A stretch of 64,000 nucleotides of DNA from Candidatus Omnitrophota bacterium (GTDB taxonomy: Bacteria > Omnitrophota > Omnitrophia > Omnitrophales > Aquincolibacteriaceae): positions 18,917 through 82,916 of the forward strand of contig JAKLIQ010000008.1 in the NCBI GenBank assembly GCA_022709525.1. The letters are read 5' to 3'. The notes beneath the pieces are model-generated. The model was not told the origin of the DNA. It made no database searches and was given only the letters and a program-made list of their open reading frames with translations. Of the stretch, positions 4,198 through 56,294 are shown piece after piece (within the stretch, counting starts at the first letter, position 1; each line of letters starts with the position of its first letter). Made by a program: the position numbers and the translations under genes.

Positions 4198-4329
4198 AAG
4201 CTCTGCCTCTTCGTATCTGGTGTGTGGGCTGGCACTTAAGGAAGCCGTAGTATATCGAAAGCCATTTTCACTGTCAAACCAAAACAAGCTTGCATTTTCA
4301 GCCCTTGAACTCACTGCCAAGCTCAGGGC

Positions 4330-7467: not shown

Positions 7468-7615
7468 AATGCTCTCTCCTTTTAGTTTGAACCGAGTTCT
7501 CGCATCCGATGCACTGGACCCGCGTCCACGGCCTTTGCTGGGTTAGTATCATACAATACAGTTTCAAAGACGACAATAAAGGTTTTCTTGCTTTACCATC
7601 GGCCCTGTTAAAGCA

Positions 7616-20754: not shown

Positions 20755-20832
20755 TGGTAGCGCTAACGGGATTTAAACCCGTGTTTCTGCCTTGAGAGGG
20801 CAGCGTCCTAGATCAGGCTAGACGATAGCGCC
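20755..20832 (-). tRNA. tRNA-Glu (anticodon CTC), CCA encoded
   Basis: Read on the minus strand: GGCGCTATCGTCTAGCCTGATCTAGGACGCTGCCCTCTCAAGGCAGAAACACGGGTTTAAATCCCGTTAGCGCTACCA. Acceptor stem is 7 bp (GGCGCTA/TAGCGCC). The anticodon loop CTCTCAA gives anticodon CTC. A T-arm is present. Confidence 0.75.
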
Positions 20833-21046
20833 CCAATAACAAACTTTATGCTTTTCCCACAAGCATCAGGGCGCCCCAAAAAACACGGGGCTTGTAATAA
20901 CCTAACCCACGATTGAAAAACAAGTTGCGGGGAGAAAAAGTCATCCAAGAACTGGGGCAGTATATCTTCGCCCTCCATGAATGTCAACGACCCGCCGCCC
21001 TCTCCCGTGATCCCCGAAAAAACAAGACGGAAAAGGTCGAAAAAAG

Positions 21047-21298
21047 TTATTGCCGCGATTTATAATCGAATACAGTCCGCTCGAGATCCTGCATCCGGTC
21101 CGCCAAAAACCGATTGGAACGTTCAAGATCCGTCACTCTTCGTTCGAGATTATCGATACGGTCTTGTTTGAGGGTCTTTTCCAAATCCTTGAATTCCGCC
21201 GGGGTCCCCGTATTCTCACCCTCGGCAGCCCAAGCAACGGGAAACGCCGTCAAAAACAGTAACATCCCAAGGATCGAAATAGCCGTAATGGTTTTCAT
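21047..21298 (-). CDS. Small secreted coiled-coil protein
   Basis: 83 aa with an N-terminal signal peptide (MKTITAISILGMLLFLTAFPVAWA) and a charged helical region. No recognisable family. Confidence 0.45.
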   Translation of the reverse strand: MKTITAISILGMLLFLTAFPVAWAAEGENTGTPAEFKDLEKTLKQDRIDNLERRVTDLERSNRFLADRMQDLERTVFDYKSRQ

Positions 21299-21368
21299 AG
21301 GTCACCTCGCAGGCGTGAGTATACCATATCTTGGGGTAAGACTAAAGACCAAAGCCTAGGGGTTCTGA

Positions 21369-22394
21369 CTAACCCCGCGGATGGAATTTGGCGTGAATGG
21401 ACTTCAGGCGGTTACCGGAAACGTGCGTGTAGATCTGGGTCGTCGAGATATCGGAATGGCCTAATAGCTCCTGCACGACGCGCAGGTCGGCGCCGCGCTC
21501 AAGAAGGTGGGTCGCGAACGAATGGCGGAACGTATGCGGCGTGATCTCCTTGGTAATGCCGGCAAGCCGCGCGTACCGCTTGATCATCTGCCAGACGAAT
21601 TGCCGCGTCAGCCCTTTTCCGTTTTTCCCAAGAAAGAAATGGTTGGTTTTAGGCTTCATTTTCGAGCGAACGCGGTTTAGATAGGACTTGCAGGCCGAAA
21701 CGGCGATGCTCCCAAGCGGGACAAGACGCTCCTTATCCCCTTTACCGCGGCATTTGATAAAACCGTTGTCGAGATAGACATTTTCGATCGGAAGGCCTGT
21801 GATCTCCGAGACGCGCATCCCGGTCGCGTAAAGACATTCCAAAAGCGCGAGATCACGAATCCCCGACTCTTTTTTGGGATCCGGTGTTTTAAGAATAGAA
21901 CTCATTTCCTCGGCCGTTAAAAATTGTGGAAGCTTTTTCCAAAGCTTGGGCGATTCAAGGACGCTCGTGATATCGGTTTGCACGTAGCGTTCCTTGGTAA
22001 GAAAACGGTGGAAAAGTTTGACCGAGACAAGTTCGCGCGCAACCGAAGAGGATTCAAGGCCGCGTTTATTTTCCGCGTTCAGGAACTTCAGGATGTGATG
22101 GCGCGTAACTTTGTTCCAATCCCCCACTTTCTCTTTTTTGAGAAAGGCTCCGTAGCGGGCAAGATCCTGACGGTAGGCGGTCAGAGTATTGGCCGCCAGG
22201 CCTTTTTCGACGGAAAGATAGTTCAGGAACTCTTCGAAAAGAAGCTGGTTCTTGTCCTGGCCGCTATTTTCTTCTGACAAAAGGTTGCCAGGGCTAGCCC
22301 CATTAACCTTTAATTTTTTGAATGGAGAATGGGACTTGTCTTTGGGTTTTTCAGGGATCGCCGCTATTTTATCCATCGCTTTGAGTATCGGCAA
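21369..22394 (-). CDS. Tyrosine site-specific recombinase, XerC/XerD type
   Basis: The C-terminal catalytic region RHSFATHLLERGADLRVVQELLGHSDISTTQIYTHV is Xer-like. An N-terminal SAM-like core-binding domain is present, preceded by an unusual ~45-aa Lys/Ser-rich extension. Confidence 0.8.
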   Translation of the reverse strand: MPILKAMDKIAAIPEKPKDKSHSPFKKLKVNGASPGNLLSEENSGQDKNQLLFEEFLNYLSVEKGLAANTLTAYRQDLARYGAFLKKEKVGDWNKVTRHHILKFLNAENKRGLESSSVARELVSVKLFHRFLTKERYVQTDITSVLESPKLWKKLPQFLTAEEMSSILKTPDPKKESGIRDLALLECLYATGMRVSEITGLPIENVYLDNGFIKCRGKGDKERLVPLGSIAVSACKSYLNRVRSKMKPKTNHFFLGKNGKGLTRQFVWQMIKRYARLAGITKEITPHTFRHSFATHLLERGADLRVVQELLGHSDISTTQIYTHVSGNRLKSIHAKFHPRG

Positions 22395-23195: not shown

Positions 23196-26100
23196 TTAGG
23201 ATTGTGTTTTGACAGTATAAACCGTCTTAGGCTTCGATGATGTCGTTGTTGTGGTTGTTGTCGACGACGTGGATTGAGCTGGCGGATTGTAGGTGCTAGC
23301 CGGAGGAGAGCTGTCCTTATGTTTTCTATCGACAGCGCTGAAAACCGTATCCAGAATTCCCGGCAGAAGGCTACCCACGGGATTATAAGCGCTTGAAGTA
23401 TCTGTCCGGGTAGCCGCTTGATAAGCATCGACCCGGAGAGAACGGGTCAAGGTATTATCGCTGCGGCGGATATCTTTTTTTCTGCTGAATGGATCGACAA
23501 CAAGAGCCATTTTATACATTCCGGGCGTCGTAAACGCCGGAACATCATTTTTCCCCATGGCTTTTCCGGTTGCGGGAATATTCAACGTTGCCGGAACGGC
23601 CGCGATCAGCTGTCCGTTTAAAAGAAACCGCACTTCACTAAAAACAGCATCCAAGGGCTCTTTTTTTCTGTTCCGGACAGTATAGGAAACCCATCCGCGT
23701 TGTCCGACCATAATACGCGATACCGAATGATTGACCCCCGGGACCCAAAAGGACACATCATCCGCTACCAGATCACAATCCGCGGTTTCGGATGAAGTGC
23801 TCATCATAGGGCGACGGTCTTGTGTGTCCGTTGCGACACTTGTTCCCAAGACCGTAAAACCATGATCCTCGCTGTTATTGTCCCTATTCGTATCATTTTT
23901 CTGAAAAGGCGCCGGGTCCACAACGACATACATTGTATGTGGCCCGGTTTCCGTCAAAGCAGGAAGATCCACGCGGCCAACAGCATCGCGATGATTCGCC
24001 GGCACATTGACAATTTTATCAACATCAGCCAGGACCGCGCCGCGAGGCGTGATCACCTTGATATGGACCTTGGTGTTGTCGACGGAGCCGTCTTTTTTGT
24101 TATAAACCTTGAATTCGACATAGCCTTGCTCCCCAACGTAAGCTTTATTTCCGATATGACGTCCCGGATACCAGAAAGTCGGGATCTGTGCTTTTAAGTC
24201 GCAGACGGGTCCCGTTGGCGCTCCTGTCGGCGGCGGAGTGATGGGGACAAGGGAGACTTCGCGGCCCATGGGTTCGAGGATCCTGAAGCCTTCGACAACC
24301 TTGATATCACGTTCGATGGAATTGCGACTGTCAGAATCTGCGTGATTGCCCGGCAAAGGCGCGATGGTGAGTTTCATTTTGTGAATTCCCGGCGTCGCGA
24401 ACGAATAATCCTCTACTCGGACATACACCGGCCTATAAGGTTCATTAGCGACTGGCTGCGCCGGCCCTGCAAGTTGACCGTCCACGTAAAGTGATGCGAT
24501 GGCATACACGGGCGAATGATCGGTATTATAAAAAGTGCCAACAAGAGCACCTTTTCTCCCGACCGTTGTTTGGGTTACCGGGTCGCCGACGCGAGTGATC
24601 TCCGTGGGTGAATATTGGTTAAATTGGACATTCAGGCATGCGAGATCGTTACGCCCCCCTCTTGTCGTTAATTCAGAGTTTTGCACGTTCACAATGCTTT
24701 CTTTATGATTATTATTCTCATTGGTTTCCTGGATTCTGTTCTGCGGATCAAGGTCGTACGTAACCTTGTAGCTGCCGGCTTGCGTGAATTTGTAAGGAAC
24801 TTGGAACCATCCGTGATCATTGGCCGGCACTTCGGCCACGGTAACATTCCCTCCGGGGATAGTTCGTCCGTTCACTTTGATCGTAACACCGACATTGGAT
24901 TCATTGTAATTCGTATCATTAGCGACAAAACCCCTGAAATCCCCCGGCAAGTTGGGGATAACCGCGCTTTCATCTGTGCTGAATTCATGAAAATGGCCTT
25001 CGGCATCGGTATAACCATATTGGGCGTAACCAATATCCCCAAATCTCAAATCATGGGATTCATCGGTATAGACCGAAGCAGACGGAGGCTCGGACGGAAT
25101 AACCGTAAGCCCTCCTTCCCGTACATTGATGGTCGCAACCGCTGGATTAAGACCCCTCGCATTAGGCGCTTGCGCAGGATTAAATCCGGTCATACTAAAA
25201 GTAAGCGTATGCGGGCCCGCTTGATTAAAGACATAATGCTCTTTAACAAATCGGATATTTTCACGGGGCGCACAATGGTCGACATGATCATCATGAACGC
25301 CTTGCCCGTCGATATTCAAAAAGCGTGAGATATTATGGGCCGCTGTGTCCCCCAAATTGGTGGTAACCGAAATAATCCTTACCGGCTCGCCCACTACCGG
25401 CTCACGAACTTCATGACCATCCGCATCCATCAAAACAAAATCGGCCCAGGTAAGGTCCACTCCTTGACTGGCCGAAGGCGGGTTTGCTCCTGCGGGAAGA
25501 ACATTGACCAGAATGGGCGCGGGGCTGGGATTGTTCCGCGCATTGGCCGCCTGAGCAGGCCTGAAGCCGGTCATGCTTAAAGTCACTTGATGCTGGCCGG
25601 GCTGATTAAAAACATAATCGTTTTTAAAGAAAGGGATATTCTGACCCGGAGCACATTGCACCGCCGCGTCATTGAGAACCCCTTGGCCGTCGATATTCAG
25701 AAACCTCGAAATACCCGTTGTCGTTGTATCTCCCGAATTGACCGTGACTGAGAAAATATTGACCGGTACTCCGGCCGTCGGTTCTCGGACTTCTCGGCCA
25801 TTGGCATCGGTCATAATAAAGTCGCCCCATCCAAGATCTACGCCTTGGGTTTGCCCGCCTCCGGCCGGAGGCGCTCCTGCAGGCAAAACATTGACGGTGA
25901 CCGTCAACGGATTGGTGCCTCTGGCATTCGCGGCTTGCGCAGGGCTGAAACCGCTCATGGTAAGAGTAAACGTATTCGGACCAGGTTGGAAAAAGGTGTA
26001 GCCGTGAATGACATAAGGGGTACACTGACCCGGGGCGCACTGCGGCACGTTGTCATTGCCGCCAGCGCCATTCATGCTAAAAGAGCGCGTAATATTCAGG

Positions 26101-26810
26101 GCGGTTGTATCCCCGTTATTCCTGCTTGAGGCGATAATATTAACGGGCACTCCGACGACCGGCTCCCTCACGTCTTGGCCCGCGGCGTCCGTCATGACGA
26201 CCTGTTCCCACGTTAGGTCGACGCCTTGGGTCTGGCCTCCGCCCGGCGGATTTCCGCCCGCGGCTTGAGGCCATATAAGAGCTGACGCTTGATTGTTGGC
26301 CGGGTCTTCCGCTACGATCGGGGCAACAAGGCTTATTTTTGCCATGATCGTGCGCTCACCTTCGATGTTGAACATCCATCCTGCCGGGACCGTGGATTCC
26401 CCCACCGGAATGGGGTAATTATCTTCAAAAAGAAGGTTGTTATTTTCAATCCACTGGATATGAACGGTTACTGGGATTTGAAAACTATTAATAACATCAA
26501 GAACCAAATTTCCGGGAACTCCCACGGTGGGCTGATTGGTTCTTTGACCATTGACTTCAAACCATATGTCCCATGCCGCGATGTCATTAGCGCCGAGATT
26601 CGCGGGGCCTACGAGGCCTCCAGGGGCTACAGGACCCGCGCAGCCTCCGGTAGGTTGTGAACCGGTCGAAGTAAGTTGCCCTAAGTCGACATTGGGCTGG
26701 CAACCACCACAACCGGAAAAAGAAAAAGAAAACGACGCAACAACAAGAATAACAACCGCGAGGAAAAAAACTTTCTTCAGGATCATCATAGGGCGCTCCT
26801 CCGGATTCAT
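23196..26810 (-). CDS. Large (1204 aa) secreted/surface protein with multiple CARDB-like domains and three internal ~125-aa tandem repeats
   Basis: N-terminal signal peptide with a possible lipobox (FSGC). Recurring CARDB-type motif ends (NENNN, ETNENNN, NDTNRDNN). Three near-identical repeats (GGGQTQGVDL...PAQAANARG...). The C-terminal tail is Ser/Thr-rich (STSSTTTTTTTSS). Confidence 0.7.
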   Translation of the reverse strand: MNPEERPMMILKKVFFLAVVILVVASFSFSFSGCGGCQPNVDLGQLTSTGSQPTGGCAGPVAPGGLVGPANLGANDIAAWDIWFEVNGQRTNQPTVGVPGNLVLDVINSFQIPVTVHIQWIENNNLLFEDNYPIPVGESTVPAGWMFNIEGERTIMAKISLVAPIVAEDPANNQASALIWPQAAGGNPPGGGQTQGVDLTWEQVVMTDAAGQDVREPVVGVPVNIIASSRNNGDTTALNITRSFSMNGAGGNDNVPQCAPGQCTPYVIHGYTFFQPGPNTFTLTMSGFSPAQAANARGTNPLTVTVNVLPAGAPPAGGGQTQGVDLGWGDFIMTDANGREVREPTAGVPVNIFSVTVNSGDTTTTGISRFLNIDGQGVLNDAAVQCAPGQNIPFFKNDYVFNQPGQHQVTLSMTGFRPAQAANARNNPSPAPILVNVLPAGANPPSASQGVDLTWADFVLMDADGHEVREPVVGEPVRIISVTTNLGDTAAHNISRFLNIDGQGVHDDHVDHCAPRENIRFVKEHYVFNQAGPHTLTFSMTGFNPAQAPNARGLNPAVATINVREGGLTVIPSEPPSASVYTDESHDLRFGDIGYAQYGYTDAEGHFHEFSTDESAVIPNLPGDFRGFVANDTNYNESNVGVTIKVNGRTIPGGNVTVAEVPANDHGWFQVPYKFTQAGSYKVTYDLDPQNRIQETNENNNHKESIVNVQNSELTTRGGRNDLACLNVQFNQYSPTEITRVGDPVTQTTVGRKGALVGTFYNTDHSPVYAIASLYVDGQLAGPAQPVANEPYRPVYVRVEDYSFATPGIHKMKLTIAPLPGNHADSDSRNSIERDIKVVEGFRILEPMGREVSLVPITPPPTGAPTGPVCDLKAQIPTFWYPGRHIGNKAYVGEQGYVEFKVYNKKDGSVDNTKVHIKVITPRGAVLADVDKIVNVPANHRDAVGRVDLPALTETGPHTMYVVVDPAPFQKNDTNRDNNSEDHGFTVLGTSVATDTQDRRPMMSTSSETADCDLVADDVSFWVPGVNHSVSRIMVGQRGWVSYTVRNRKKEPLDAVFSEVRFLLNGQLIAAVPATLNIPATGKAMGKNDVPAFTTPGMYKMALVVDPFSRKKDIRRSDNTLTRSLRVDAYQAATRTDTSSAYNPVGSLLPGILDTVFSAVDRKHKDSSPPASTYNPPAQSTSSTTTTTTTSSKPKTVYTVKTQS
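25100..26260. repeat. Three tandem ~375-bp intragenic repeats inside the CARDB protein gene
   Basis: Protein-level repeats of about 125 aa at 55-70% identity imply DNA repeats. Similar DNA blocks are visible (for example ccggtcat...ttaaagtcacttgatgctggccgggctgattaaaaacataatcg against ccggtcat...gcccgcttgattaaagacataatgc). Confidence 0.5.
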
Positions 26811-32240: not shown

Positions 32241-32831
32241 CTACATGCTGAGCGATTTTTTTGCTTGTTTGCTCGCTTTTTCGGCTTCTTTTTGTTTCTT
32301 CTTCGCTTCTTCTGCAGCTTTCTTTTTCGCCTTCTCGGCTTCGCGTTGCGCTTTCTTTTTCGCCTCTTCGGCCTCTTTTTGTTTCTTTTTGGCCAATTTT
32401 TCGGCCTCGGCTTTCTGAGCTTTCAGTTTTTTCTCGGATTCAATTTTCTTTTTGGCCTCTTCGGCTTTCTTCTTGGCTTTTTCGGCTTCGCGCTCGGCCT
32501 GCTTTTTGGCTTTCTCCGCTTCGCGTTCCGCCTTTTTCTTGGCTTCTTCGGCCTCTTTTTGTTTCTTTTTCGCTTCTCTTTCGGCCTCTTTCTTCGCCTT
32601 CGCGGCCTCTCGTTCGGCTTTTTCCGCTTCTTTCTTACTTAAACCGGGAGGCATATTCCCTTCCCAGCCTTTTTTCTCGCCCTTTCCCCAGCCTGCGGGA
32701 TTGGTGTTCTCCTCCTCGGCAAAGGCCAAGCTACCGCCTAAACTGAGTCCCAGCACTAACACAAAAACACACATCCGCATAAAGATGTTTGCTTTCATGA
32801 TCTTGCCCTCCTCTCGTTGAATAAAAAACAC
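32241..32831 (-). CDS. Secreted Lys/Glu/Ala-repeat protein, paralogue 1
   Basis: 196 aa with a signal peptide. Conserved head PAGWGKGEKKGWEGNMPPGLSKKEAEK, then about 120 aa of (KKxAEREAEKA) repeats. Confidence 0.55.
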   Translation of the reverse strand: MFFIQREEGKIMKANIFMRMCVFVLVLGLSLGGSLAFAEEENTNPAGWGKGEKKGWEGNMPPGLSKKEAEKAEREAAKAKKEAEREAKKKQKEAEEAKKKAEREAEKAKKQAEREAEKAKKKAEEAKKKIESEKKLKAQKAEAEKLAKKKQKEAEEAKKKAQREAEKAKKKAAEEAKKKQKEAEKASKQAKKSLSM

Positions 32832-32836
32832 TGTGA

Positions 32837-33583
32837 TCAGGACGCGTTCTTCTTCGCTTCTTTTTCCGCGCGCTTTGCTTCGCGCTTCGCCTGTTTTTCA
32901 GCTTTTTTTGCAGCTCTCTTCGCGTCACGTTCCTGCCGCTTGATATCCCGCTTGGCTTTGGCTGCCTGATAATCAGCCTCCGCCTTAGCGCGATCGGCAG
33001 CGCGGTCGGCTTTCAGTTTCGCCAGTCTCTCTTCGTTCTTTTTCCTCTCAATGTCCCGCTCGGCTTTTTTTGCTTCGTATTGGGCCTTTTCTTCGGCTTT
33101 CTTCGCTTCGCGCTCGGCTTTCTTCTTGGCTTTCTTTGCTTCATTTTCTGCTTTCTTTTTGGCCGCCTCCTTTTCATTTTCCGCTTTCTCTTTGGCTTTT
33201 TGAGCTTCCTTTTCGGCCTCTTTTTTAGCCTTCTCCGCTTCCTTTTGCGCTTTCTTCTCGGCTTTCTCGGCTTCTTTTTGCTTTTTTTTCGCTTCTTTCT
33301 CGGCTTCCTTGGCAGCTTTTTCAGCTTTCTTTTGTTCTTTTTTAGAAGCCTTTTCGGCTTTCTTTTGAGCTTTCTTTGCCTCTTTGTCAGCTTTCTTTTG
33401 CGTTTTTTTGGCCTCTTTTTCGCTTAGGCCGGGGGGCACGTTCGTTTCCCAACCTTTTTTCTCGCCTTTTTCCCAACCCGAAGGACTAGTGCCATTTTCT
33501 TCAGCAAAAGCAATGCCTCCGCCTAAACTCAATCCCCAAGCAATTAAAAAAGTGCATACCCATTGGCTCATCTTAGTTTTCAT
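32837..33583 (-). CDS. Secreted Lys/Glu/Ala-repeat protein, paralogue 2
   Basis: 248 aa with a signal peptide and the same head (PSGWEKGEKKGWETNVPPGLSEKEAKK) followed by KAE-type repeats. Tandem duplicate of 32241..32831. Confidence 0.55.
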   Translation of the reverse strand: MKTKMSQWVCTFLIAWGLSLGGGIAFAEENGTSPSGWEKGEKKGWETNVPPGLSEKEAKKTQKKADKEAKKAQKKAEKASKKEQKKAEKAAKEAEKEAKKKQKEAEKAEKKAQKEAEKAKKEAEKEAQKAKEKAENEKEAAKKKAENEAKKAKKKAEREAKKAEEKAQYEAKKAERDIERKKNEERLAKLKADRAADRAKAEADYQAAKAKRDIKRQERDAKRAAKKAEKQAKREAKRAEKEAKKNAS

Positions 33584-34030: not shown

Positions 34031-34096
34031 ATTTATTTTTTAAATTGAAAACAGGACTGCCGCTGATTACCAATCATAATTTCAATATAATGACAA

Positions 34097-34171
<75 letters not shown>

Positions 34172-34331
34172 CGTACAATTGTTTAAAAATCAACAGATCG
34201 TCGGGAGCAGTCTTGATTTCCTTAAAATCTTTTTAAATAGAAATCAAGGCGCCCCGAGAAAAACAATGAAGCAACAAGAACAAAACGGCGGGGATTATAA
34301 CATTCTCTGGAGGGCGATTCAATCAAAGGCG

Positions 34332-36086
34332 TCAAACATCCACGGCCAGATCAGCCGTTGACGCAACCTGTTCGGGCGTGATCGGTGATGGAGCGATCGA
34401 ACGGCGCTTCATCCCCCGGGTTAAAAGCGCGGCCTCCATCACCTCCTTGAACACCGGAGCCGCCACGGTGCCGCCATAATAGAGAGGCCTTGGCTCATCC
34501 AGAACAACGACCATCGCGTAACGGGGATCGTCTGCGGGAGCGAACCCCACGAACGAGGACATGAACGCACTATGGGAATACCCCTTGCCCCCTGGAAGGA
34601 TCTTCTGACCGGTACCGGTCTTGCCGCCGACCGGAATATCCGGTATTTTAGCTTTAGTGCCGGTGCCTCTTTCCACGACCTGTTTCAAGATCTCGCGCAT
34701 TATAGCGGCGATTTCTGGCTTGATGACCTGCTGCCTTATTACGGGCTTTTTTTCTTTTAGCGTCACGCCTGCCGGGTCCTGAACTTTAGAAATGATATAG
34801 GGACGCATGAGGTAACCTCCATTCGCGATCACCGCTATAGCGTTCACCATTTGAAGGGCCGTCACCATAACCTCCTGTCCCATGGGAATATTATAAGGAG
34901 AGGTTTTGGACCACTGAGAAGGCGGCCGCGTATAACCGGGCGCCTCCCCCGCCATATCGATCCCGGCACGCACGCCGAAACCGAATTTCTGCACGTAATC
35001 CTGAAACTTGGCGGGGCCCATTTTTTGAGCGATCTTGACCGTCCCGATATTGCTTGATTTAACAATGATCTCGCTCATTGGAAGCGTCCCGTAAGCGTGA
35101 ACATCACGTAATGTTTTGATGCCGTAATTCCATTTTCCATTCTCGCAAAAAAAGGTTGTTTCCGGTTTCACCGCATCCTCATTGAGGGCGCCGCTTGCGG
35201 CCACGATCTTGAAAACGGAGCCCGGTTCATACATATCTGTGATGGCGCGGTTGCGCTTAGCGTCTGCTCCGACTTTGGCGTAGTGGTTCGGATCAAAGCC
35301 CGGTTGATTCGCCATCGCCAGGATTTCGCCTGTCTTCGGATCCATAACGATCGCCCACGCGCCCTTAGCCTTCCATTGCTTGAAAGCGGACTCGAGCGCT
35401 TTTTCGGTCAAATATTGAAGGTGTTGGTCGATCGTTAATACCACCCGGTTCCCGTCGATCACAGGAAGGCTTTTCACTTCGAATGCTTTGATCTCGCGCC
35501 CTTTAGCGTCGCGCTGCGTGACGCGTTTTCCGGGTTTTCCTCTCAGATCGCCATCCATGGAACGCTCAATGCCCTCCACGCCTTCGTTGTCGACGGTAGA
35601 AAAACCCAACACCTGCGCGAGCATGGACCCCTGCGGGTAAAACCGCTTATATTCTTCCAAAATGCCCAAGGCCGGCGAATTGAGCTTCCGGATCTTGTCG
35701 GATTCCTCGAAGGTCACGCGGCGTTTAAGCCAGACGAACGCTTTATCCCGCGATAACCGCTCCAGCACCCATTTCCGGTCAAGGCCCAGGATCTTCGCGA
35801 CCTCAGAGCTCAGGTCTTTGCGTTCTCCCTCCTCCAGCACGCGAGGAACGGCGTAGATCGAAGGGATCTTCAAATTGGTAACGAACTCCTTGCCGTTTCG
35901 GTCCGTGATGGGACCCCGGAGCGGCGGGACATCCACGCTAATGTAATGCTGGCGATGCGCCAGTTGGAGAAGCGAGGACTGGTGAAAGCAGGTCAATTGA
36001 ACGATCTGGTAAATGATCAAACAGAAAAAAATAAAGAGGACAATGTAGAGGAACCAGAACCGACGCGGCGAAAGCAACGCTCGCAT
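34332..36086 (-). CDS. ftsI: Division-specific peptidoglycan transpeptidase FtsI (PBP3)
   Basis: 584 aa with N-terminal TM, PBP dimerisation and transpeptidase domains (SVFK, SSN, KTGT). Lies downstream of ftsL. Confidence 0.85.
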   Translation of the reverse strand: MRALLSPRRFWFLYIVLFIFFCLIIYQIVQLTCFHQSSLLQLAHRQHYISVDVPPLRGPITDRNGKEFVTNLKIPSIYAVPRVLEEGERKDLSSEVAKILGLDRKWVLERLSRDKAFVWLKRRVTFEESDKIRKLNSPALGILEEYKRFYPQGSMLAQVLGFSTVDNEGVEGIERSMDGDLRGKPGKRVTQRDAKGREIKAFEVKSLPVIDGNRVVLTIDQHLQYLTEKALESAFKQWKAKGAWAIVMDPKTGEILAMANQPGFDPNHYAKVGADAKRNRAITDMYEPGSVFKIVAASGALNEDAVKPETTFFCENGKWNYGIKTLRDVHAYGTLPMSEIIVKSSNIGTVKIAQKMGPAKFQDYVQKFGFGVRAGIDMAGEAPGYTRPPSQWSKTSPYNIPMGQEVMVTALQMVNAIAVIANGGYLMRPYIISKVQDPAGVTLKEKKPVIRQQVIKPEIAAIMREILKQVVERGTGTKAKIPDIPVGGKTGTGQKILPGGKGYSHSAFMSSFVGFAPADDPRYAMVVVLDEPRPLYYGGTVAAPVFKEVMEAALLTRGMKRRSIAPSPITPEQVASTADLAVDV

Positions 36087-36089
36087 TTT

Positions 36090-36482
36090 TTAGGAGGAAA
36101 GGTCGGTCTTGGCCTGGGCCGTCTGGATCCAACGACCGAGAAAGCTTGAAACTTCGGACGACAACGTGCGCGTGGCTTTATGCTCCTGCGATGCCGGAAT
36201 AGCCAATTCCGGCACGGGAGGGATCTCCACGACCTGGATCTTATTGGGAAGCGCGAGACCCATGTCGTGCCGTTTCATTTTTGCCTCAAGAAGGCGGGGG
36301 GCCCTCAATTGATCGACCTTATATTGGAACCTGCGAAGGAGTTCTTGCTTTTCGGCAACGGCGCGGGAATTTTTGTGGATATCGAGAGAGACAAGAACGG
36401 AAGCGATCTGAAGATGCACAAAAAGAAGCATCGAACAGGTCAACGTCGCGATAAGAATTAAAACTTTTCCGCTGCCTTTCAT
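36090..36482 (-). CDS. ftsL: Cell division protein FtsL-like
   Basis: 130 aa with a single TM plus coiled coil, between rsmH and ftsI. Confidence 0.6.
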   Translation of the reverse strand: MKGSGKVLILIATLTCSMLLFVHLQIASVLVSLDIHKNSRAVAEKQELLRRFQYKVDQLRAPRLLEAKMKRHDMGLALPNKIQVVEIPPVPELAIPASQEHKATRTLSSEVSSFLGRWIQTAQAKTDLSS

Positions 36483-37387
36483 GATATTTTTTCAATGACC
36501 CGGAGTTTAGCGCTTCTTGATCTTGGATTATTCAATATTTCCGAACGTTTTGCAACAAGTGGTTTACGAAAAATCAATTTTCCGCGCTCTTCAAGGTCCC
36601 ATGCCCGGAACTGTTGCTTGACGATCCGGTCCTCAAGGGAATGAAAACTGATGACTCCGAGCCTTCCGCCCGGAACGAGGTGCTTGAAAGCGCCGCTCAT
36701 GCCTTCTTTCAGGGCTTCCAGCTCGTCGTTGACGCCGATCCGGAGGGCTTGAAAAACTTTTGTGGCGGGATGGCGCCGCGCCCAACCGGGCCGCTTTCCT
36801 TTCTCAAACCGCAGATGGGACGGAAGGGCCTTTTCAAGGGCTTGATGGAGGTCTTCGACGGTCTTGAGAGGATGATGGCGACGCGTCTCTACGATCACCT
36901 TGGCAAAACGCCGCGATCGACGTTCTTCGCCGTAATGATAGAAGAGGTCTGCCAGCTGAACTTCGGACATCTGCGTGAGCAGGTCCGAGGCCTTGCGGCC
37001 GATCTCAGGGTTCATCCGCATATCCAATTCCCCTTCCCCTTGGAAACTGAAACCGCGCTTTCCGTCCGCCAATTGTTCCGACGAGATCCCGATATCCAGA
37101 AGCACGGCATCGAATGCCTTGACCTCTAACCGCATAAAAACTTTGTCTAAATTCCTGAAATTCTCGTGGACCAAAACGATCCGCGGGTCTTTTTCGAAGA
37201 GCGCCCGGCACCGCCGGATCGCGTCCGGATCCTGATCGAATCCGACCAGTTTCCCGGACGGCCCTATCTTTTCCAGGATCGCTTCCGCGTGCCCCCCGCC
37301 CCCGAGCGTACCGTCCATCACGACGGCGCCCGGCTTGAGCGCCAGAGCGTCCAGAACTTCTTGTAAAAGAACGGGCTTATGCCGCAA
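36479..37387 (-). CDS. rsmH: 16S rRNA (cytosine1402-N4)-methyltransferase RsmH/MraW
   Basis: 302 aa with the MRHKPVLLQEVLDAL N-terminus and an SAM-methyltransferase fold. Confidence 0.9.
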   Translation of the reverse strand: MRHKPVLLQEVLDALALKPGAVVMDGTLGGGGHAEAILEKIGPSGKLVGFDQDPDAIRRCRALFEKDPRIVLVHENFRNLDKVFMRLEVKAFDAVLLDIGISSEQLADGKRGFSFQGEGELDMRMNPEIGRKASDLLTQMSEVQLADLFYHYGEERRSRRFAKVIVETRRHHPLKTVEDLHQALEKALPSHLRFEKGKRPGWARRHPATKVFQALRIGVNDELEALKEGMSGAFKHLVPGGRLGVISFHSLEDRIVKQQFRAWDLEERGKLIFRKPLVAKRSEILNNPRSRSAKLRVIEKIS

Positions 37388-37715
37388 AACTAAGGATCGC
37401 CTCTTCTTCCGACGGATAGCTTTCCATAAGACCGTTCACGCCGATCATCTGGAAAGTCCGTTCGACCTCGGGGCGTAAATTGCAAAGTTTGATATCCCCT
37501 TTTTGCTCGCGCACCTTGCGGAGGCGATCCACCAAGATCCCGACTCCCGCCAGCTCCACGCGCCGCGTATCCTTCAGATCCAGCAATAAGCGCTTGTGGT
37601 TGCGGTGAAGCAGGCGATTCATGCGGTCCTTCATTTTGATCATGGTAAGGGCATTAAGATCTCCGTTAAAACGCAACACATCGACCCCGATCTTCGTCCT
37701 GGCGTGATAGACCAT
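37377..37715 (-). CDS. STAS-domain protein (anti-sigma-factor antagonist family)
   Basis: 112 aa. The VLRFNGDLNA...LLLDLKDTRRVELAGVGILV pattern resembles SpoIIAA/RsbV. Embedded between mraZ and rsmH. Confidence 0.65.
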   Translation of the reverse strand: MVYHARTKIGVDVLRFNGDLNALTMIKMKDRMNRLLHRNHKRLLLDLKDTRRVELAGVGILVDRLRKVREQKGDIKLCNLRPEVERTFQMIGVNGLMESYPSEEEAILSFAA

Positions 37716-37728
37716 GATGACTCCTTTC

Positions 37729-38166
37729 CTATTCGGATACTAGCTTTTCTGCGAGTTCTTCAAAATGGTTCTTATGATGATCGAAAAATCCCTGCCACTT
37801 CTCTTTCGCCCAGATCTCGATACGGCTCGAAACGCCGACGATCACCACATCGGTTTTGATGTCGGCATAACTTTTCAAATAATCCGGGATCAAGACCCTT
37901 CCCTGTTTGTCGCAAACGACTTCACAGGCACCGGAAAAGAAAAGGCGGTTGAAGGTCCTGGATTCGGATTTAGTAAAGGGCATATCGCGAAACTTTTTTT
38001 CTTCCGTCTTCCATTGCTCTTCGGTGAAAACGAACAGACATTGATCGAGACCGCGGGTAATAAAGAAACGCTCAACATAGCGTTCTTTAAAGATCTCGCG
38101 GAATTTGGCGGGGATCATCACGCGGCTTTTTGCGTCGATCACATGTTCGTATTCACCGTAAAACAT
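37729..38166 (-). CDS. mraZ: Division/cell wall cluster transcriptional regulator MraZ
   Basis: 145 aa with two MraZ repeats. The first reads IDAKSRVMIPAKFRE and the second DKQGRVLIPDYL. Confidence 0.85.
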   Translation of the reverse strand: MFYGEYEHVIDAKSRVMIPAKFREIFKERYVERFFITRGLDQCLFVFTEEQWKTEEKKFRDMPFTKSESRTFNRLFFSGACEVVCDKQGRVLIPDYLKSYADIKTDVVIVGVSSRIEIWAKEKWQGFFDHHKNHFEELAEKLVSE

Positions 38167-38188
38167 GTCTTTTTGTTCCTTTCAGCAT

Positions 38189-38258
38189 TCCCACTATTTA
38201 CCACTTTTCCCCACTTTATTATCGACGGTAGTATAACTTTCCCTTAATTTCGTGTCAA
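38189..38258 (-). promoter_or_regulatory. mraZ promoter (TTGACA-17-TATACT) with a downstream MraZ operator (three GTGG[G/T] direct repeats at 10-bp spacing)
   Basis: Minus-strand sense: TTGACAcgaaattaagggaaagtTATACT...aaGTGGGgaaaaGTGGTaaataGTGGGaatg, placed just upstream of the mraZ ATG. It matches the MraZ box architecture. Confidence 0.5.
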
Positions 38259-38399
38259 CAGTCTTTTTTATAGGGATGGTATGAATAAAGAACTCCCTTG
38301 GAGACGGCTTTTTGTAGAGAGGAAACGGGTAAAAAACGCCTAAGAGGCAGGATGGTCGGGGTCGGAATCTAAACGAGGCGTTTCAGCAAAGACGAAGAA

Positions 38400-39116
38400 T
38401 TACGATTCGAAATAAAGGATGCGGGAACAGTTCTCGCAGACAATGATCTGTTCGCCGAGACGGATCTCATTGATCAATTGAGGCCGAAGCTGCATTTGGC
38501 AAGCCGCACAGACTTCGCCATTCACCGCAGCGAGCGCAAGCCCCTGTTTTTTGACGACGATCCGGTTATAAAGCTCCGCAAGTTCGGGCGGAAGCTGCGT
38601 AACGGCTTCTTCGCGTTGTTTTTTAAGATCGACAAGGCGTCCTTGCAGATTTTTTTCCTGCGTCACTAATTCGCTATCTTTATCCTGGAACGATTTGGTC
38701 ACCAAAGCGACTTTTTCTTTTTCTTTTCGCGTCTCATCCTTGGCGGCTTCGACCTCATCCAGGATATGGATGATCCCCTCCTCAAGAAGGGAATTATCGG
38801 CCTTAAGCGAAGCGATCTCCTGCTGGAGCGCCGCATATTCCTTGTTCGTCTTCACCTGCGACAATTGCCCGTCAAGTTTTTTGATCTGCATTTCCTTCTG
38901 GGAAAGCTCGAGCTCTTTTTCTTTAAGCTTTAGCTGGATGTCCTTAAGCATTTTCTCGAGTTCGGTGAAATGAGTTTTTTCGAGCTCAAGGTCGGCCTTA
39001 AGCTGGGCTCTCTGCGACGGGATCTCTTCCAGCAAGATATGGGCGTGATGGATCTCGCTGTCAAGTTGCTGGGCTTTTTTTAAGATATCAAGGTTCTGGG
39101 TAATGGGGCTTGGCAT
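38400..39116 (-). CDS. Coiled-coil protein with C-terminal C4 zinc ribbon (COG1579-like)
   Basis: 238 aa with a long coiled coil, then CAACQMQL...CENCSRILY. Confidence 0.6.
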   Translation of the reverse strand: MPSPITQNLDILKKAQQLDSEIHHAHILLEEIPSQRAQLKADLELEKTHFTELEKMLKDIQLKLKEKELELSQKEMQIKKLDGQLSQVKTNKEYAALQQEIASLKADNSLLEEGIIHILDEVEAAKDETRKEKEKVALVTKSFQDKDSELVTQEKNLQGRLVDLKKQREEAVTQLPPELAELYNRIVVKKQGLALAAVNGEVCAACQMQLRPQLINEIRLGEQIIVCENCSRILYFES

Positions 39117-39187: not shown

Positions 39188-39721
39188 TTAGATCCTTCGC
39201 AGGAAGCGGGATAGTTCGGCCAGTCCCCGGATCTCTTCGGGGGTCAAGCGCGCGTTCTGCAAAAAGCTTTTGGAAGAAGGGACAGCGCTCGGAACTTCTC
39301 CTTTCGCTAAAGACGTGAGCGCATAGGCGGGAGACGGGACCCATTTGCAGATCCGCGCGCTCGTTCTCTCTCCTACCACGGCAAAAAGGCCTCGGTATTC
39401 AAAAAAACTGAGCCGGTCGCTGAAACCGTTCATTTCCAGGATCCGGTGCCGGTCCAATTCCGGATAGAAAAAATAAAGCGCGGCGTTGTTCGGCATCAGC
39501 ACCCAAAGCTTTCTGATCTCCTGCTGGAGCTCTTCTTTCGAAAAATCTCTCATGGAGCGGTAAAAGATGCGCACCCATATTTGTGCGTCCTTGCTCTTGA
39601 ACAAGAAGGGGGCTCCGTTCGCATCTTCAAGGATCACCTTGTCGTTGTGAAGCTCCTGAACCGACGAACGGATCGACTGGAAGATCTCTTGCCGGTGGGC
39701 GCGTTCTTGAAGGGCGATCAT
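39188..39721 (-). CDS. Hypothetical protein (about 178 aa)
   Basis: Start inferred from an ATGA overlap with the upstream gene's stop at 39718. No recognisable domain. Confidence 0.4.
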   Translation of the reverse strand: MIALQERAHRQEIFQSIRSSVQELHNDKVILEDANGAPFLFKSKDAQIWVRIFYRSMRDFSKEELQQEIRKLWVLMPNNAALYFFYPELDRHRILEMNGFSDRLSFFEYRGLFAVVGERTSARICKWVPSPAYALTSLAKGEVPSAVPSSKSFLQNARLTPEEIRGLAELSRFLRRI

Positions 39722-40503
39722 TGGGAAACTCCCGAAAAAGATTCGATCCAGCCAGCCAACATATATTTCTGAAGGGCCGGCTTCGCGTTCCATGACTGGT
39801 AGCGTAAAAGCTCCGCATGCAAAGCCGCCGAAAAATGCTTCGAGGGATCCGCAAGGTCCAGCCACCCGAGCCAAGCCAGATGGGTATCAAGATGCCTGAA
39901 AACCAAATCCGAAAAACGCTCGAAGATCATCTCTCCCTGGACCCCTTCCCCGCCTCCCGCCAAAGCGATATAGAACTCGAGCTGGGGATTTAGCGCGAGA
40001 CCGGCTTTCATCATCTTATAACCATCAGTTAAAGATTCAGGGTCCGGCTCGAGCAATAAGACCCATTTATCGAGAAAAGCGATCGTTTTTTCAAATTGAA
40101 AAAGATGGCGGTATTCAAAATCCAGGAAAATATCCCGGCTTTGCAAGATCCCGCCTGCATGGCGCGGCAGAGGAGCGTTCATAAGATCACGAAATTCGTC
40201 CCAATAAAGACAAAAACGTTCCAGCCGCTCCCCGAAAGGTTCGGGCGTATGGTTCAGGGATCCTGAAAGAACAGGAGCGGAACGCGGCAGGAGACTGATC
40301 AGCGAACAATCTTTATCCTGGGAGGCGATTTGGGAAGCGAAAAACGTGTTTAAGAAAAGAGAATCATTGTCATGTCCGGGACTTGAAACGGCCAAAACCT
40401 GCACTTCCGGCGGGCGGCGGGCCGGAAGCTCTTCGGACTCGACGCAAAAAAGCGGCGAAAGGTCCTTGAGTCCCCGCGTTAATTTCTTCTCGAGATCCAT
40501 CAT
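39718..40503 (-). CDS. ParA/MinD-like pseudo-ATPase (degenerate Walker A)
   Basis: About 261 aa. Start inferred from an ATGA overlap with the parA-like stop at 40500. VLAVSSPGHDNDSLFLNTFFASQIASQDKDCSLISLLP aligns to the ParA P-loop region (IIAIANQKGGCGKTTTS...VLLVDLDP) but the GKT is lost. Later segments keep the fold (WVLLLEPDPESL... resembles the ILDCPP switch region). Confidence 0.45.
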   Translation of the reverse strand: MMDLEKKLTRGLKDLSPLFCVESEELPARRPPEVQVLAVSSPGHDNDSLFLNTFFASQIASQDKDCSLISLLPRSAPVLSGSLNHTPEPFGERLERFCLYWDEFRDLMNAPLPRHAGGILQSRDIFLDFEYRHLFQFEKTIAFLDKWVLLLEPDPESLTDGYKMMKAGLALNPQLEFYIALAGGGEGVQGEMIFERFSDLVFRHLDTHLAWLGWLDLADPSKHFSAALHAELLRYQSWNAKPALQKYMLAGWIESFSGVSQ

Positions 40504-41600
40504 GCAAACTCCATATAAGAGTCCACGCCGCCATAAGCGTTCTCTTTTTGCATCGGCTGGCTCGGATCCACCTGCCATTCCCCATCCACGATGAACTTGT
40601 ACCGGAAGGTTTTAAGCTGCACGGGAATGACCCTCTGCCAGAGCCCTTCCTGATTGCGCTTGACGAGGGGCTCGGGGATCCAATGGTTGAAATCCCCGGC
40701 GATCTCTACCGAGGAAGCGATCTTGCTGAAGAACTGGAAAAGGATCCCATCCGAGATCTGGCGCGGACCAAAATGATTTTTATAAACCTTTTCCCACCCC
40801 AGCTCTTTCTCGGGCAGTTTCCGGTTCCAATCGCGTTCAAGATATTCCACGGCGAGGTTTAAATAGTCCTGGAACGCTTGCGATTGCGGCGCGTACTGCG
40901 CGATGCTCTGCCCCGCCGCGGCGGCTTCTTTGAGACTGATATGATCATGAATGATGGTCGTAAAAAGACGGTTCTGGAAATGGGCCCGGACCTCGTCGTA
41001 GATCTCCTGCGAAAAATTCATTTGGGAGTTGTAGATCGTCAGAAGCGCGTGTACCAGCAATGGCGTTTCGCGGCTCCGGTTGACGATCTGTAGGGTCTCC
41101 GAGATCTTGGCAAGCCCGTGAAGCGAGAAAAAAGAGGGTTCGATCGGGATGATGATCTCATCGGCCGCATTCAGAGCGTTCCAGGTGAGGACCCCAAGAT
41201 TGGGCGGACAATCAAGGATTACAAAATCGTAGAAGCGTTGTTCCTCGGCCAGGCGATTCATCAGTTCGCGCAGTTTGAGGTGATAGTGGGGCATAAAACC
41301 GAATTCTTCCTCAAGGGCATTGAGACTGGCGTTGCAGGGAATAAGATCAAGATCATTTTGCAGGGACCGGATCACTTGAGAAACCGGCGGACCGGCCCTC
41401 TGGAAAGGACTTAAAAGATCGTAGAGCGTGGGGGTGCCCTTCGGGGTTTTGACCCCTAGCCCGCACGTGGAATGCCCTTGGGGATCCAGATCGACGAGAA
41501 GGACCTTTTTCTGGAGAAAATTCAAACACGCAGAGAAATTGATGCTGGTCGTGGTCTTCCCGCATCCGCCTTTTTGATTCGCGATCGCGATGATTCTCAA
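40500..41600 (-). CDS. ParA/MinD-family ATPase fused to a C-terminal AMPK-beta glycogen-binding (CBM48-like) domain
   Basis: Deviant Walker A motif NQKGGCGKTT, DLDPQG and ILDCPP. The C-terminal ~80 aa (IAGDFNHW...FRYKFIVDGEWQVDPSQP...GGVDSYMEF) match the AMPK1_CBM/CBM48 glycogen-binding domain consensus (GSFNNW...YKFFVDGQWTHDPSEP). The track start is a TTG. Confidence 0.8.
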   Translation of the reverse strand: MRIIAIANQKGGCGKTTTSINFSACLNFLQKKVLLVDLDPQGHSTCGLGVKTPKGTPTLYDLLSPFQRAGPPVSQVIRSLQNDLDLIPCNASLNALEEEFGFMPHYHLKLRELMNRLAEEQRFYDFVILDCPPNLGVLTWNALNAADEIIIPIEPSFFSLHGLAKISETLQIVNRSRETPLLVHALLTIYNSQMNFSQEIYDEVRAHFQNRLFTTIIHDHISLKEAAAAGQSIAQYAPQSQAFQDYLNLAVEYLERDWNRKLPEKELGWEKVYKNHFGPRQISDGILFQFFSKIASSVEIAGDFNHWIPEPLVKRNQEGLWQRVIPVQLKTFRYKFIVDGEWQVDPSQPMQKENAYGGVDSYMEFA

Positions 41601-53630: not shown

Positions 53631-54266
53631 TTACGAACCTTTACGGATCAAGCGCCACGGATGGAGCTTGAGATCCGCCGTCATATCCCGCAAGTTGGCC
53701 GTCACTTCATGGAGATTGCTGATACTTTTTGAGATTTCCTCTTTATTACCGGAAACAATGTCGTTGGTGGTCTTAAGAAGAGGATTCAGACTTTCGGTCA
53801 TCTGGGCGACCTCGTCGGCCAGATCGTTCATTTTACGGATCAGGACATGCATGGGGATCGGATCGATGCCCCGGATCACCTTGCCCGCTCCCATCGCCGG
53901 CGCGTTCTGAGAGCCAACGGAGATCTCGATGAATTTCTCGCCCATCATCCCGAGCGTATCGATATAAGCCACGCTGTCTTCGCGCACATAAACCTCTTTG
54001 GAAACCTTGACGGTGACCATCACGGGCCTCGGTTCCCCCGGAACGACCTGGATCTTGTCGACTTTACCGACTTCGCGGCCCGCGTAATAAACGGGGGCGC
54101 TGTCGCTGAGACCATTGAGATACCCGAATTGGATCTTCAGCTCGTTGGCCCCTTTCTTAAAATACCCTCCGACCACGAAGGTAAGCACCAAGAGCATGAT
54201 GATCGTGATCAACACAAAAAATCCGGACTTGATCTCCGATGACGAATAGCCATTTGAAGAATCCAT
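53631..54266 (-). CDS. mlaD: MCE-domain protein MlaD
   Basis: 211 aa with an N-terminal TM and an MCE domain (YFKKGANELKIQFGYLNGL...VYYAGREVGKV). Confidence 0.8.
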   Translation of the reverse strand: MDSSNGYSSSEIKSGFFVLITIIMLLVLTFVVGGYFKKGANELKIQFGYLNGLSDSAPVYYAGREVGKVDKIQVVPGEPRPVMVTVKVSKEVYVREDSVAYIDTLGMMGEKFIEISVGSQNAPAMGAGKVIRGIDPIPMHVLIRKMNDLADEVAQMTESLNPLLKTTNDIVSGNKEEISKSISNLHEVTANLRDMTADLKLHPWRLIRKGS

Positions 54267-54289
54267 CTTCTCCTCCTTGAAACGGTTTC

Positions 54290-55096
54290 TTAAGTGGAAA
54301 GAAGCCCTTTTAAATAAGCTTCGCTGGTTTGCTTGAACGGGATGACGCCTTCCGACTCTCCCTGGATGAATTGCTGAACATAGGAATTCTTGGAATTCTG
54401 GATCTCTTCGGCGGTGCCCACCTGCAGGACTTTGCCCTTATGAAGAATGATGACCTGATCCGCGATGCGGAACGCACTCTTCATTTCGTGTGTCACCACC
54501 ACCGAAGTGATATTGAGCTTCTTGCTGAGATCCAGGATCAGACGGTCGATCATGCTGGCCGTGATCGGATCAAGACCCGCCCCTGGTTCATCGTAAAAAA
54601 CGATCTTGGGATCAAGGGCGATCGCGCGGGCGAGCGCGACGCGTTTCTTCATCCCGCCCGAGATCTGATGCGGCATGAAATCCTCAAAACCCGTCAAACC
54701 GACGAGTTCTAATTTGACGCGAACGATGATCCGGATGATCTCCGGAGAAAGATCCGTGTGCTCCCTCAAAGGCACGGCAACATTCTCGCCGACAGTCATG
54801 GAATTAAAAAGAGCGGAGCCCTGGAACAGCATGCCGAACTTGCGGCGCACCTCGTTCATTTCTTTTTCTTTAAGGCCCGCGATATTGACGCCGTCGACCA
54901 AAATATCGCCCGAGGTCGGTTGATAAAGGCCGATCAAATGGCGCAGAAACGTGGTCTTGCCGCATCCCGACCCGCCCATGATCACGGTAATCTTGCCTCG
55001 CGGGATGTTCACATTGATACCGTCAAGGACCGCGCGGTCGCCGAAACGCTTGACGAGTTCTTTAACTTCAATAATAGGTTGTTCGGATTCGTTCAT
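54290..55096 (-). CDS. mlaF: ABC transporter ATP-binding protein MlaF
   Basis: Walker A GGSGCGKTT, signature ISGGMKKRVALARA and Walker B. The start is likely MNESEQPIIEV; the track ORF is over-extended. Confidence 0.85.
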   Translation of the reverse strand: MNESEQPIIEVKELVKRFGDRAVLDGINVNIPRGKITVIMGGSGCGKTTFLRHLIGLYQPTSGDILVDGVNIAGLKEKEMNEVRRKFGMLFQGSALFNSMTVGENVAVPLREHTDLSPEIIRIIVRVKLELVGLTGFEDFMPHQISGGMKKRVALARAIALDPKIVFYDEPGAGLDPITASMIDRLILDLSKKLNITSVVVTHEMKSAFRIADQVIILHKGKVLQVGTAEEIQNSKNSYVQQFIQGESEGVIPFKQTSEAYLKGLLST

Positions 55097-55103
55097 ATTT
55101 TTC

Positions 55104-55904: not shown

Positions 55905-55930
55905 GAAAAAATAATCCCTTAAATGTTAGA

Positions 55931-56275
55931 TCACGCCTTGGTGCCTAGACGCGTCATGGCTTCCGCGACCGTCGGAGCGATCTCAAAAATACTGTCCAAC
56001 TTCGCGATCTCAAAAACGCCCCGCACCGTCCCGGTCAGTTCCGCAAGCACAAGCCGTCCCTGATAACGCTTGGTTTTCTGGAACGCTTCTACGAAGGTCG
56101 CGATGCCTGAACTGTCCATATAATCCACGCCGCTTAGATTCATGAGGATCTTGGAGGCCTGTTTTCCGGTCAGCTCGCCAAGCTTTTCGCGAAGTTCCGG
56201 CGAAGAATGATAGTCCAACTCCCCTGAAAGCTCGAGAATATTCACATCGCCTTGCGTTGTTGATTGGATCTTCAT
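55931..56275 (-). CDS. STAS-domain anti-sigma-factor antagonist
   Basis: 114 aa. ILELSGELDYHSSPELREKL...YMDSSGIATFVEAF includes a conserved phosphorylatable Ser context (DSSGI). Confidence 0.75.
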   Translation of the reverse strand: MKIQSTTQGDVNILELSGELDYHSSPELREKLGELTGKQASKILMNLSGVDYMDSSGIATFVEAFQKTKRYQGRLVLAELTGTVRGVFEIAKLDSIFEIAPTVAEAMTRLGTKA

Positions 56276-56294
56276 AAGAATTCGCCTTTCCTTT

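Follow-up and report, generated by a model that had tools for sequence, protein, structure and literature searches.

A STAS-domain gene kept between mraZ and rsmH in one Omnitrophota lineage encodes a SpoIIAA/RsbV-like protein with no phospho-acceptor serine

A STAS gene between mraZ and rsmH

We analyzed a 64,000-nt stretch of contig JAKLIQ010000008.1 from a Candidatus Omnitrophota bacterium (hereafter the window; all feature coordinates are positions in it). Its division and cell wall (dcw) operon, which lies entirely on the minus strand, contains a 112-codon open reading frame (ORF) between mraZ and rsmH. This ORF encodes a real protein, a SpoIIAA/RsbV-like single domain of the STAS fold, referred to here as the dcw STAS. 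As judged from alignments and gene neighborhoods, three derived characters set it apart from the canonical antagonists of its ancestry: the phospho-acceptor is gone, no kinase gene is linked, and the charge is inverted.

A model that read the sequence alone (the original prediction) had placed a STAS-domain protein of 112 residues here, overlapping the start of rsmH, and had pointed to Pfam for a check. The protein was readily recognized. Residues 9–106 match PF01740 with 57.2 bits against a cutoff of 22.6 (1.6e-15), PF13466 matches too, and the overlap with rsmH spans 11 nt. When the PDB was searched with a profile of 31 homologues, SpoIIAA was the best solved relative (2e-11). The AlphaFold (AF2) model had a predicted local distance difference test (pLDDT) score of 84 and a predicted template-modeling (pTM) score of 0.76. 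Foldseek gave SpoIIAA bound to SpoIIAB (1thn_B) as the top match for this model, with a template-modeling (TM) score of 0.84 and an E of 3.6e-8, and all 57 PDB matches at E <= 1e-3 were STAS domains.

The possibility of a spurious ORF with poor codon usage had been raised in the same prediction. The ratio of nonsynonymous to synonymous substitution rates (dN/dS), calculated by the Nei–Gojobori method over 45 orthologues, was 0.041 for the dcw STAS and 0.036 when codons overlapping rsmH were left out. These values lie between those of MraZ (0.026) and RsmH (0.093). Across the clade, the dcw STAS is 56–92% identical, versus 50–81% for RsmH, and its mean column identity is 81%; MraZ is 71–93% identical across the STAS-bearing clade. 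G+C content at third codon positions (GC3) is in line with that of neighboring genes, and the ORF is 112 codons long in nearly every locus. The dN/dS, the fixed length and the conservation together rule out a spurious ORF, and the gene is real. Recent duplication of the second STAS gene of the window (STAS2, described below) was also ruled out, as the two proteins are only 19% identical.

To see how far the arrangement extends, we scanned for orthologues using one genome per GTDB species. The dcw STAS was found at 47 Omnitrophota species loci (L009–L055), at 56–92% identity; the next matches, in other phyla, are at most 37% identical. As far as each contig extends, all 47 loci share the order (CT398-like)-mraZ-STAS-rsmH-ftsL-ftsI. 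The mraZ-STAS-rsmH-ftsL-ftsI order also occurs on eight metagenome contigs, and at least 10 metagenome contigs carry an identical STAS protein, in each case as mraZ-STAS-rsmH. A second, smaller and more divergent branch comprises 13 clusters that are about 46–56% identical to the window STAS and occupy the same position (L089, L169, L170 and L171). Conservation of the insertion in relatives, on which the prediction had made its case depend, is thus seen in both branches.

As background for comparison, we took 80 rsmH loci sampled broadly across bacteria, drawn from the matches listed in a metagenome scan; L089–L091, L096, L097, L100 and L103 are among them. Among the matches listed, mraZ lies upstream of rsmH in 63 of these 80 background loci, with the two genes no more than 150 nt apart in 53 of the 63. 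A STAS gene separates them in two of the 63, again among the matches listed, and both belong to this family. Loci ranked by MraZ similarity to the window give a consistent picture. STAS is present between mraZ and rsmH at the locus with 93% MraZ identity (L093), a divergent STAS is present at the locus with 71% (L089), and at loci with 53–61% (L103, L090, L091, L100 and L096) no gene intervenes, the gap being 22–69 nt. For three of these STAS-less loci (L091, L096 and L100), the MraZ cluster carries the NCBI name Candidatus Omnitrophota. Because other Omnitrophota and most of the diverse bacterial loci have mraZ adjoining rsmH, the comparison indicates that the STAS gene is a lineage-specific insertion in one Omnitrophota lineage, retained since. 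A canonical anti-sigma-factor antagonist gene would have entered between mraZ and rsmH and then been stably kept. In STAS-less Omnitrophota outgroups, a Mur ligase gene comes straight after ftsI (L090, L096 and L100, at about 6460..7880). The STAS lineage ends its operon at ftsI, so gain of STAS and truncation of the cluster go together.

One further locus, L097, whose MraZ is 59% identical to that of the window, has a 76-aa ORF (3260..3490) between mraZ and rsmH. It matches the C-terminal half of the dcw STAS weakly (28% over 58 aa; hidden Markov model E 0.002), and could be a decayed STAS remnant or an unrelated small gene; a protein of exactly this sequence is absent from the protein collection. 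We also looked for STAS–RsmH fusions. N-terminal extensions of 95–145 aa occur in several RsmH representatives; none is a STAS or MraZ domain, and none has a family match. Another RsmH representative (P0133) has a circularly permuted YpsA SLOG domain (PF12694, 1.6e-48) at its C terminus.

Acceptor residue, kinase linkage and charge

In SpoIIAA and RsbV, a D-S-S/T-G motif supplies the phospho-acceptor as its first Ser (Ser58 and Ser56, respectively); the motif reads MDASG in the trapping mutant 1TID. PDB alignments place the acceptor at Leu55 of the window STAS, and Leu55 is invariant in the 31 aligned homologues. No Ser or Thr is present whether the acceptor is aligned to Leu55 or to Ala56. 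A phosphorylatable Ser/Thr, which the original prediction had named as a point to check, is therefore lacking. Every dcw-embedded STAS, in both branches, has Leu or Phe at the acceptor position, and in the main dcw branch the preceding Asp has become Glu. By contrast, Ser occupies the acceptor position in all 33 of the nearest non-dcw relatives, in STAS2 of the window and in SpoIIAA.

Gene neighborhoods and charge differ in parallel. Directly downstream of 26 of the 33 nearest non-dcw relatives, on the same strand, lies a gene for an RsbW-type kinase of the HATPase_c_2 family, whereas no HATPase_c_2 kinase gene was found in the flanks of the dcw STAS (0 of 60 loci). The isoelectric point (pI) of the dcw STAS ranges from 8.8 to 12 over 174 proteins, with branch medians of 9.9 and 10.7, as compared to a median of 5.85 for the nearest relatives, 5.9 for SpoIIAA and 4.9 for RsbV. 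Conserved basic residues are concentrated on helix 1 (K27, R31, R34 and R38) and helix 2 (R64, K67 and R69). On the antagonist model TIGR00377 (cutoff 53.45), the window STAS scores 57.0, a member of the second branch (P0301) 51.6, and STAS2 93.3.

These alignments and neighborhoods argue that the dcw STAS probably cannot serve as a phosphorylation-controlled switch, and we infer that it is kinase-independent in vivo. An ancestral antagonist was probably remodeled through replacement of Ser by Leu or Phe, loss of the adjacent kinase gene, and a shift from acidic to strongly basic. Some sources name the dcw STAS an anti-sigma factor antagonist. With both the acceptor Ser and a cognate kinase missing, it should not be filed as such, and the case warns against giving this label to every small STAS protein.

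The original prediction had also pointed to an RsbW-like kinase and a second STAS protein encoded 18 kb away. Both are present.

56295..56699, minus strand: RsbW-like HATPase_c_2 kinase (5.4e-27)
55931..56275, minus strand: canonical STAS2, with an MDSSG motif and a pI of 5.4 (STAS match, 7.3e-26)

The kinase gene begins before ribE has ended, STAS2 starts 19 nt after the kinase gene, and mlaE, mlaF and mlaD come next (53631..56699 from the kinase gene onward, minus strand). The order ribD-ribE-kinase-STAS-mlaE-mlaF-mlaD is kept in three other loci (L172–L174). Since the kinase adjoins, in conserved order, a STAS protein that is canonical, acidic and Ser-bearing, its obvious and probable substrate is STAS2 and not the dcw STAS. 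The kinase looks like a regulator of the Mla-type transporter rather than of the dcw STAS. This arrangement suggests a Mla-type lipid transporter with a MlaB-like STAS subunit under phosphorylation control; on the MlaB model itself, STAS2 scores 23 bits (cutoff 90). No gene for a PP2C phosphatase or a sigma factor was found among the genes of the 64-kb window.

These data bear on a rival explanation, namely that partner switching persists but is controlled by dosage. The acceptor-less dcw STAS would be a dead-end antagonist, or decoy, for a kinase or anti-sigma factor of the RsbW/SpoIIAB type, perhaps that encoded at 56699..56295. MraZ-controlled expression would then titrate the kinase, and thereby couple the division genes to sigma factor or STAS2/Mla outputs. 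The closest solved relatives of the dcw STAS, by sequence and by fold, are indeed SpoIIAA and RsbV, including kinase-bound SpoIIAA. The window STAS slightly exceeds the TIGR00377 cutoff (57.0 versus 53.45), and an RsbW-like HATPase_c_2 protein is encoded in the genome. Moreover, SpoIIAA with Ala at the acceptor position has been crystallized with SpoIIAB (1TID/1TIL), so a STAS protein can bind the kinase without an acceptor. But the dcw STAS has Leu or Phe there, a bulky residue and not Ala; in the main branch, Glu stands in for the Asp before it; and a pI of about 10 departs from the acidic antagonists (pI 4.9–5.9). Kinase linkage, seen for 26 of 33 relatives, is nil at the 60 dcw loci; the only kinase of the window belongs to a conserved operon of its own, together with a canonical substrate; and neither a sigma factor nor a PP2C gene is among the window genes. 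We consider a decoy improbable.

Operon layout and possible roles

The dcw operon of the window consists of five genes, mraZ, STAS, rsmH, an ftsL-like gene and ftsI, with the following features.

38230..38258, minus strand: sigma-70-like promoter, TTGACA-17-TATACT, with 11 of 12 consensus matches; top site in a scan of 34200..38450
38190..38215, minus strand: MraZ operator, three AGTGGK boxes at exact 10-nt intervals, located downstream of the -10 hexamer and upstream of the mraZ start
37729..38166, minus strand: mraZ, 145 aa (Pfam MraZ PF02381, 4.7e-35)
37716..37728, minus strand: mraZ–STAS spacer, 13 nt, with an AAGGAG Shine–Dalgarno sequence read from the sequence
37377..37715, minus strand: dcw STAS gene, 112 aa, pI 9.8, acceptor motif E54-L55-A56-G57 (PF01740)
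37377..37387, minus strand: 11-nt stretch common to the 3' end of STAS and the start (TTG) of rsmH, a putative site of translational coupling
36479..37387, minus strand: rsmH (mraW), 16S rRNA methyltransferase, 302 aa, TTG start (Methyltransf_5 PF01795, 1.4e-95)
36090..36482, minus strand: ftsL-like small membrane protein, 130 aa, assigned by position and an N-terminal hydrophobic segment; no family match
34332..36086, minus strand: ftsI-type class B penicillin-binding protein (PBP), with PBP_dimer and Transpeptidase matches; last gene of the operon
34096..34171: tRNA-Pro, 3' of ftsI

The promoter, the MraZ operator repeats and mraZ thus open the cluster as had been predicted. The array of AGTGGK boxes is the sole match in the window and was never obtained in 100 shuffles. 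In related loci, the ftsL-like gene is kept at the same position. Consensus scans revealed no strong promoter or terminator inside the operon; the single strong promoter lies upstream of mraZ. The 11-nt STAS/rsmH overlap with a TTG rsmH start is found in 43 of 45 sequences, the window included. Across 44 orthologous loci, the gap between mraZ and STAS is 11–33 nt and purine-rich, with a Shine–Dalgarno-like sequence in nearly all of them. The 13-nt gap with its Shine–Dalgarno sequence, the 11-nt overlap and the lack of strong internal signals imply that the STAS gene is co-expressed with mraZ and rsmH. The original prediction had suggested that partner-switching signaling feeds into the division operon or is co-expressed with it. 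The geometry agrees with co-expression. Phospho-switching through the distant kinase does not fit, given the missing acceptor and a kinase with its own STAS2.

With the rsmH start inside the STAS ORF, translation of rsmH probably depends on ribosomes finishing that ORF. The ORF might then be a coupling device for rsmH, or a passenger that borrows the promoter for an unrelated housekeeping role, in either case with no tie to division. The TTG start in 43 of 45 sequences is what such a device would predict. But coupling needs only some upstream ORF, not a 112-residue protein with a dN/dS of 0.04, 81% column identity and a well-predicted fold. Outgroups translate rsmH without a STAS ORF, and the position is stable across two deep branches. 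We give this explanation little credence.

Our preferred account, in which we place somewhat less than even confidence, is that the dcw STAS is a neofunctionalized STAS adaptor that works without a kinase and is made in amounts determined by the MraZ-controlled operon. The MraZ-repressed promoter, together with translational coupling to both mraZ and rsmH, would set the amount of STAS and so hold it in a fixed ratio with MraZ, RsmH, FtsL and FtsI. The protein might bind, stoichiometrically, an acidic partner or a nucleic acid in the MraZ/RsmH module, with its activity governed by expression and not by phosphorylation. Possible effects include modulation of MraZ repressor activity or assistance to RsmH. 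A more specific proposal, which we regard as possible though rather unlikely, is that the dcw STAS is a third component of the MraZ/RsmH module, binding MraZ, RsmH or rRNA and tuning autoregulation of the division operon. Proteins that interact are typically encoded in a stable order and translationally coupled. Both neighbors act on nucleic acids, MraZ (an AbrB/antitoxin-like repressor) on operator DNA and RsmH on 16S rRNA. In E. coli, overproduction of MraZ is reportedly toxic, and RsmH is said to counteract it. The coupled order, the nature of the neighbors and this antagonism are why we favor a role inside the module.

Several observations weigh against this account. Rate covariation of STAS is weak, both with MraZ (r 0.22, p 0.065) and with RsmH (r 0.23, p 0.02), and singled out no partner for the dcw STAS. 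The method also gives high values for pairs without known interaction, and residual phylogenetic signal inflates unrelated pairs. Our literature search gave no precedent of a STAS domain alone binding MraZ, RsmH or nucleic acid. The genome does encode an RsbW-like protein, to which a STAS that cannot be phosphorylated could yet bind. In addition, our search covered 64 kb of the genome, and kinases, phosphatases and sigma factors may be encoded elsewhere. Finally, co-transcription was deduced from geometry and consensus scans only.

The adaptor could instead serve the divisome, by binding the cytoplasmic tails of FtsL/FtsI, FtsZ/FtsA, or an ABC ATPase such as FtsE, and regulating septal peptidoglycan synthesis. 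Its operon, which this lineage has cut to five genes, also contains ftsL and ftsI. STAS domains also bind partners other than kinases: the YchM STAS–ACP complex (3ny7) is among the fold matches, VapS binds VapC, and MlaB–MlaF binding provides a model. Yet the STAS gene always lies between mraZ and rsmH and never adjoins ftsL or ftsI, no residual rate covariation with FtsI is seen (r -0.06), the MlaB model gives 18 bits against a cutoff of 90, and the operon encodes no ABC ATPase. Such a role seems unlikely to us.

The mraZ–rsmH pair is among the most conserved gene pairs in bacteria. A protein retained between the two over a long span of evolution, under strong purifying selection, is a natural candidate partner of one or both, physical or functional. 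If the dcw STAS does act on MraZ/RsmH, MraZ would have its first protein modulator, and a STAS domain would have been put to use wholly outside phospho-signaling. The MraZ/RsmH question would also gain an experimental handle, with three small, soluble proteins open to heterologous expression. The trait is limited to a single lineage of uncultured bacteria, and the role is proposed from sequence. As an evolutionary case, it is a clean one: an antagonist from a partner-switching system gave up the switch itself (serine, kinase and charge) and came to be used elsewhere.

Other genes near the operon were also noted. Directly upstream of mraZ, at 38400..39116 on the minus strand, lies a gene for a CT398-like coiled-coil and zinc-ribbon protein (PF24481, PF02591). 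It is found 5' of mraZ in every locus of the clade, at 52–100% identity. By tblastn, among the background loci listed that lie outside this family, a CT398-like gene precedes mraZ in one (L135, 32% identity), and the Omnitrophota outgroups have none there. In the window, the gene is set apart from the mraZ promoter by a terminator-like hairpin (38349..38337). At 40500..41600, also on the minus strand, is a gene for a ParA/MinD-type ATPase (AAA_31, CbiA and MipZ matches) fused at its C terminus to a CBM48/AMPK glycogen-binding module. Two conserved ORFs without a family match come next (39718..40578 and 39188..39874). This block precedes the CT398-like gene in L001–L004 and L171 as well. Beyond ftsI and tRNA-Pro, at the other end, are two ORFs with no family match (32241..33583), then genes for an SDR protein and a SpoU methylase.

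Elsewhere in the window, a cell-shape cluster (44..5628, minus strand) encodes an enzyme of the EPSP_synthase family (MurA- or AroA-like), MreB, MreC, MreD and a PBP2-type transpeptidase. Together with the dcw operon, this cluster would equip the organism with both the elongation and the division machineries for peptidoglycan. A tyrosine recombinase gene (Phage_integrase with a SAM-like N-terminal domain; XerC/D or integrase), within 20758..22394 on the minus strand, adjoins a tRNA gene (20758..20832). A 1204-aa protein with a CARDB domain is encoded at 23196..26810.

Comparison with known systems

The dcw STAS resembles SpoIIAA and RsbV (TIGR00377, PF01740) in size, in its STAS fold (TM 0.84) and single-domain organization, and in keeping the G-x-G at the start of helix 2. 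It differs in being basic, in lacking the acceptor Ser and an adjacent kinase/anti-sigma gene, and in its location inside the dcw operon. Its nearest relatives are members of STAS–kinase pairs in Gemmatimonadota, Fibrobacterota, Krumholzibacteriota and Planctomycetota (L056–L088). These are similar in length (about 110–117 aa) and 25–37% identical over most of it, but all 33 have the acceptor Ser, 26 are followed by the kinase gene, their median pI is 5.85, and none is near mraZ or rsmH. When the operon is set beside canonical mraZ-rsmH-ftsL-ftsI-murE dcw clusters, the MraZ-box promoter and the one-strand order of mraZ, rsmH, ftsL and ftsI are shared. Here, unlike in those clusters, an extra gene separates mraZ from rsmH and the cluster stops after ftsI.

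MlaB, the small STAS subunit of the MlaFEDB lipid transporter, binds MlaF and thus provides an example of a small STAS protein with a partner other than a kinase. The dcw STAS differs from it, scoring 18.2 bits on NF033618 (cutoff 90), with no MlaF-type ATPase in its operon. The mlaEFD linkage in the window belongs to STAS2 (55931..56275), not to the dcw STAS.

We found no published description of a STAS gene in a dcw cluster in the literature on STAS with mraZ or dcw, or on Omnitrophota division. A 2021 review of STAS-only proteins describes all characterized systems as dependent on a conserved serine, and division is not mentioned. A further comparison is with CapS, a STAS-containing repressor with a winged helix-turn-helix (wHTH) for DNA binding, and VapS, a STAS antitoxin-like inhibitor of VapC (EMBO J 2026, PMC13373217). 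In both, a Ser/Thr is absolutely conserved and a cognate GHKL kinase is present (PMC13373217), whereas the dcw STAS is a single 112-aa domain with neither of these and no wHTH. CapS works directly on a promoter and VapS on the VapC toxin, neither of them a sigma target, and both proteins regulate the operon next to them. They illustrate the re-use of STAS as a modular binding partner, which the dcw STAS may share.

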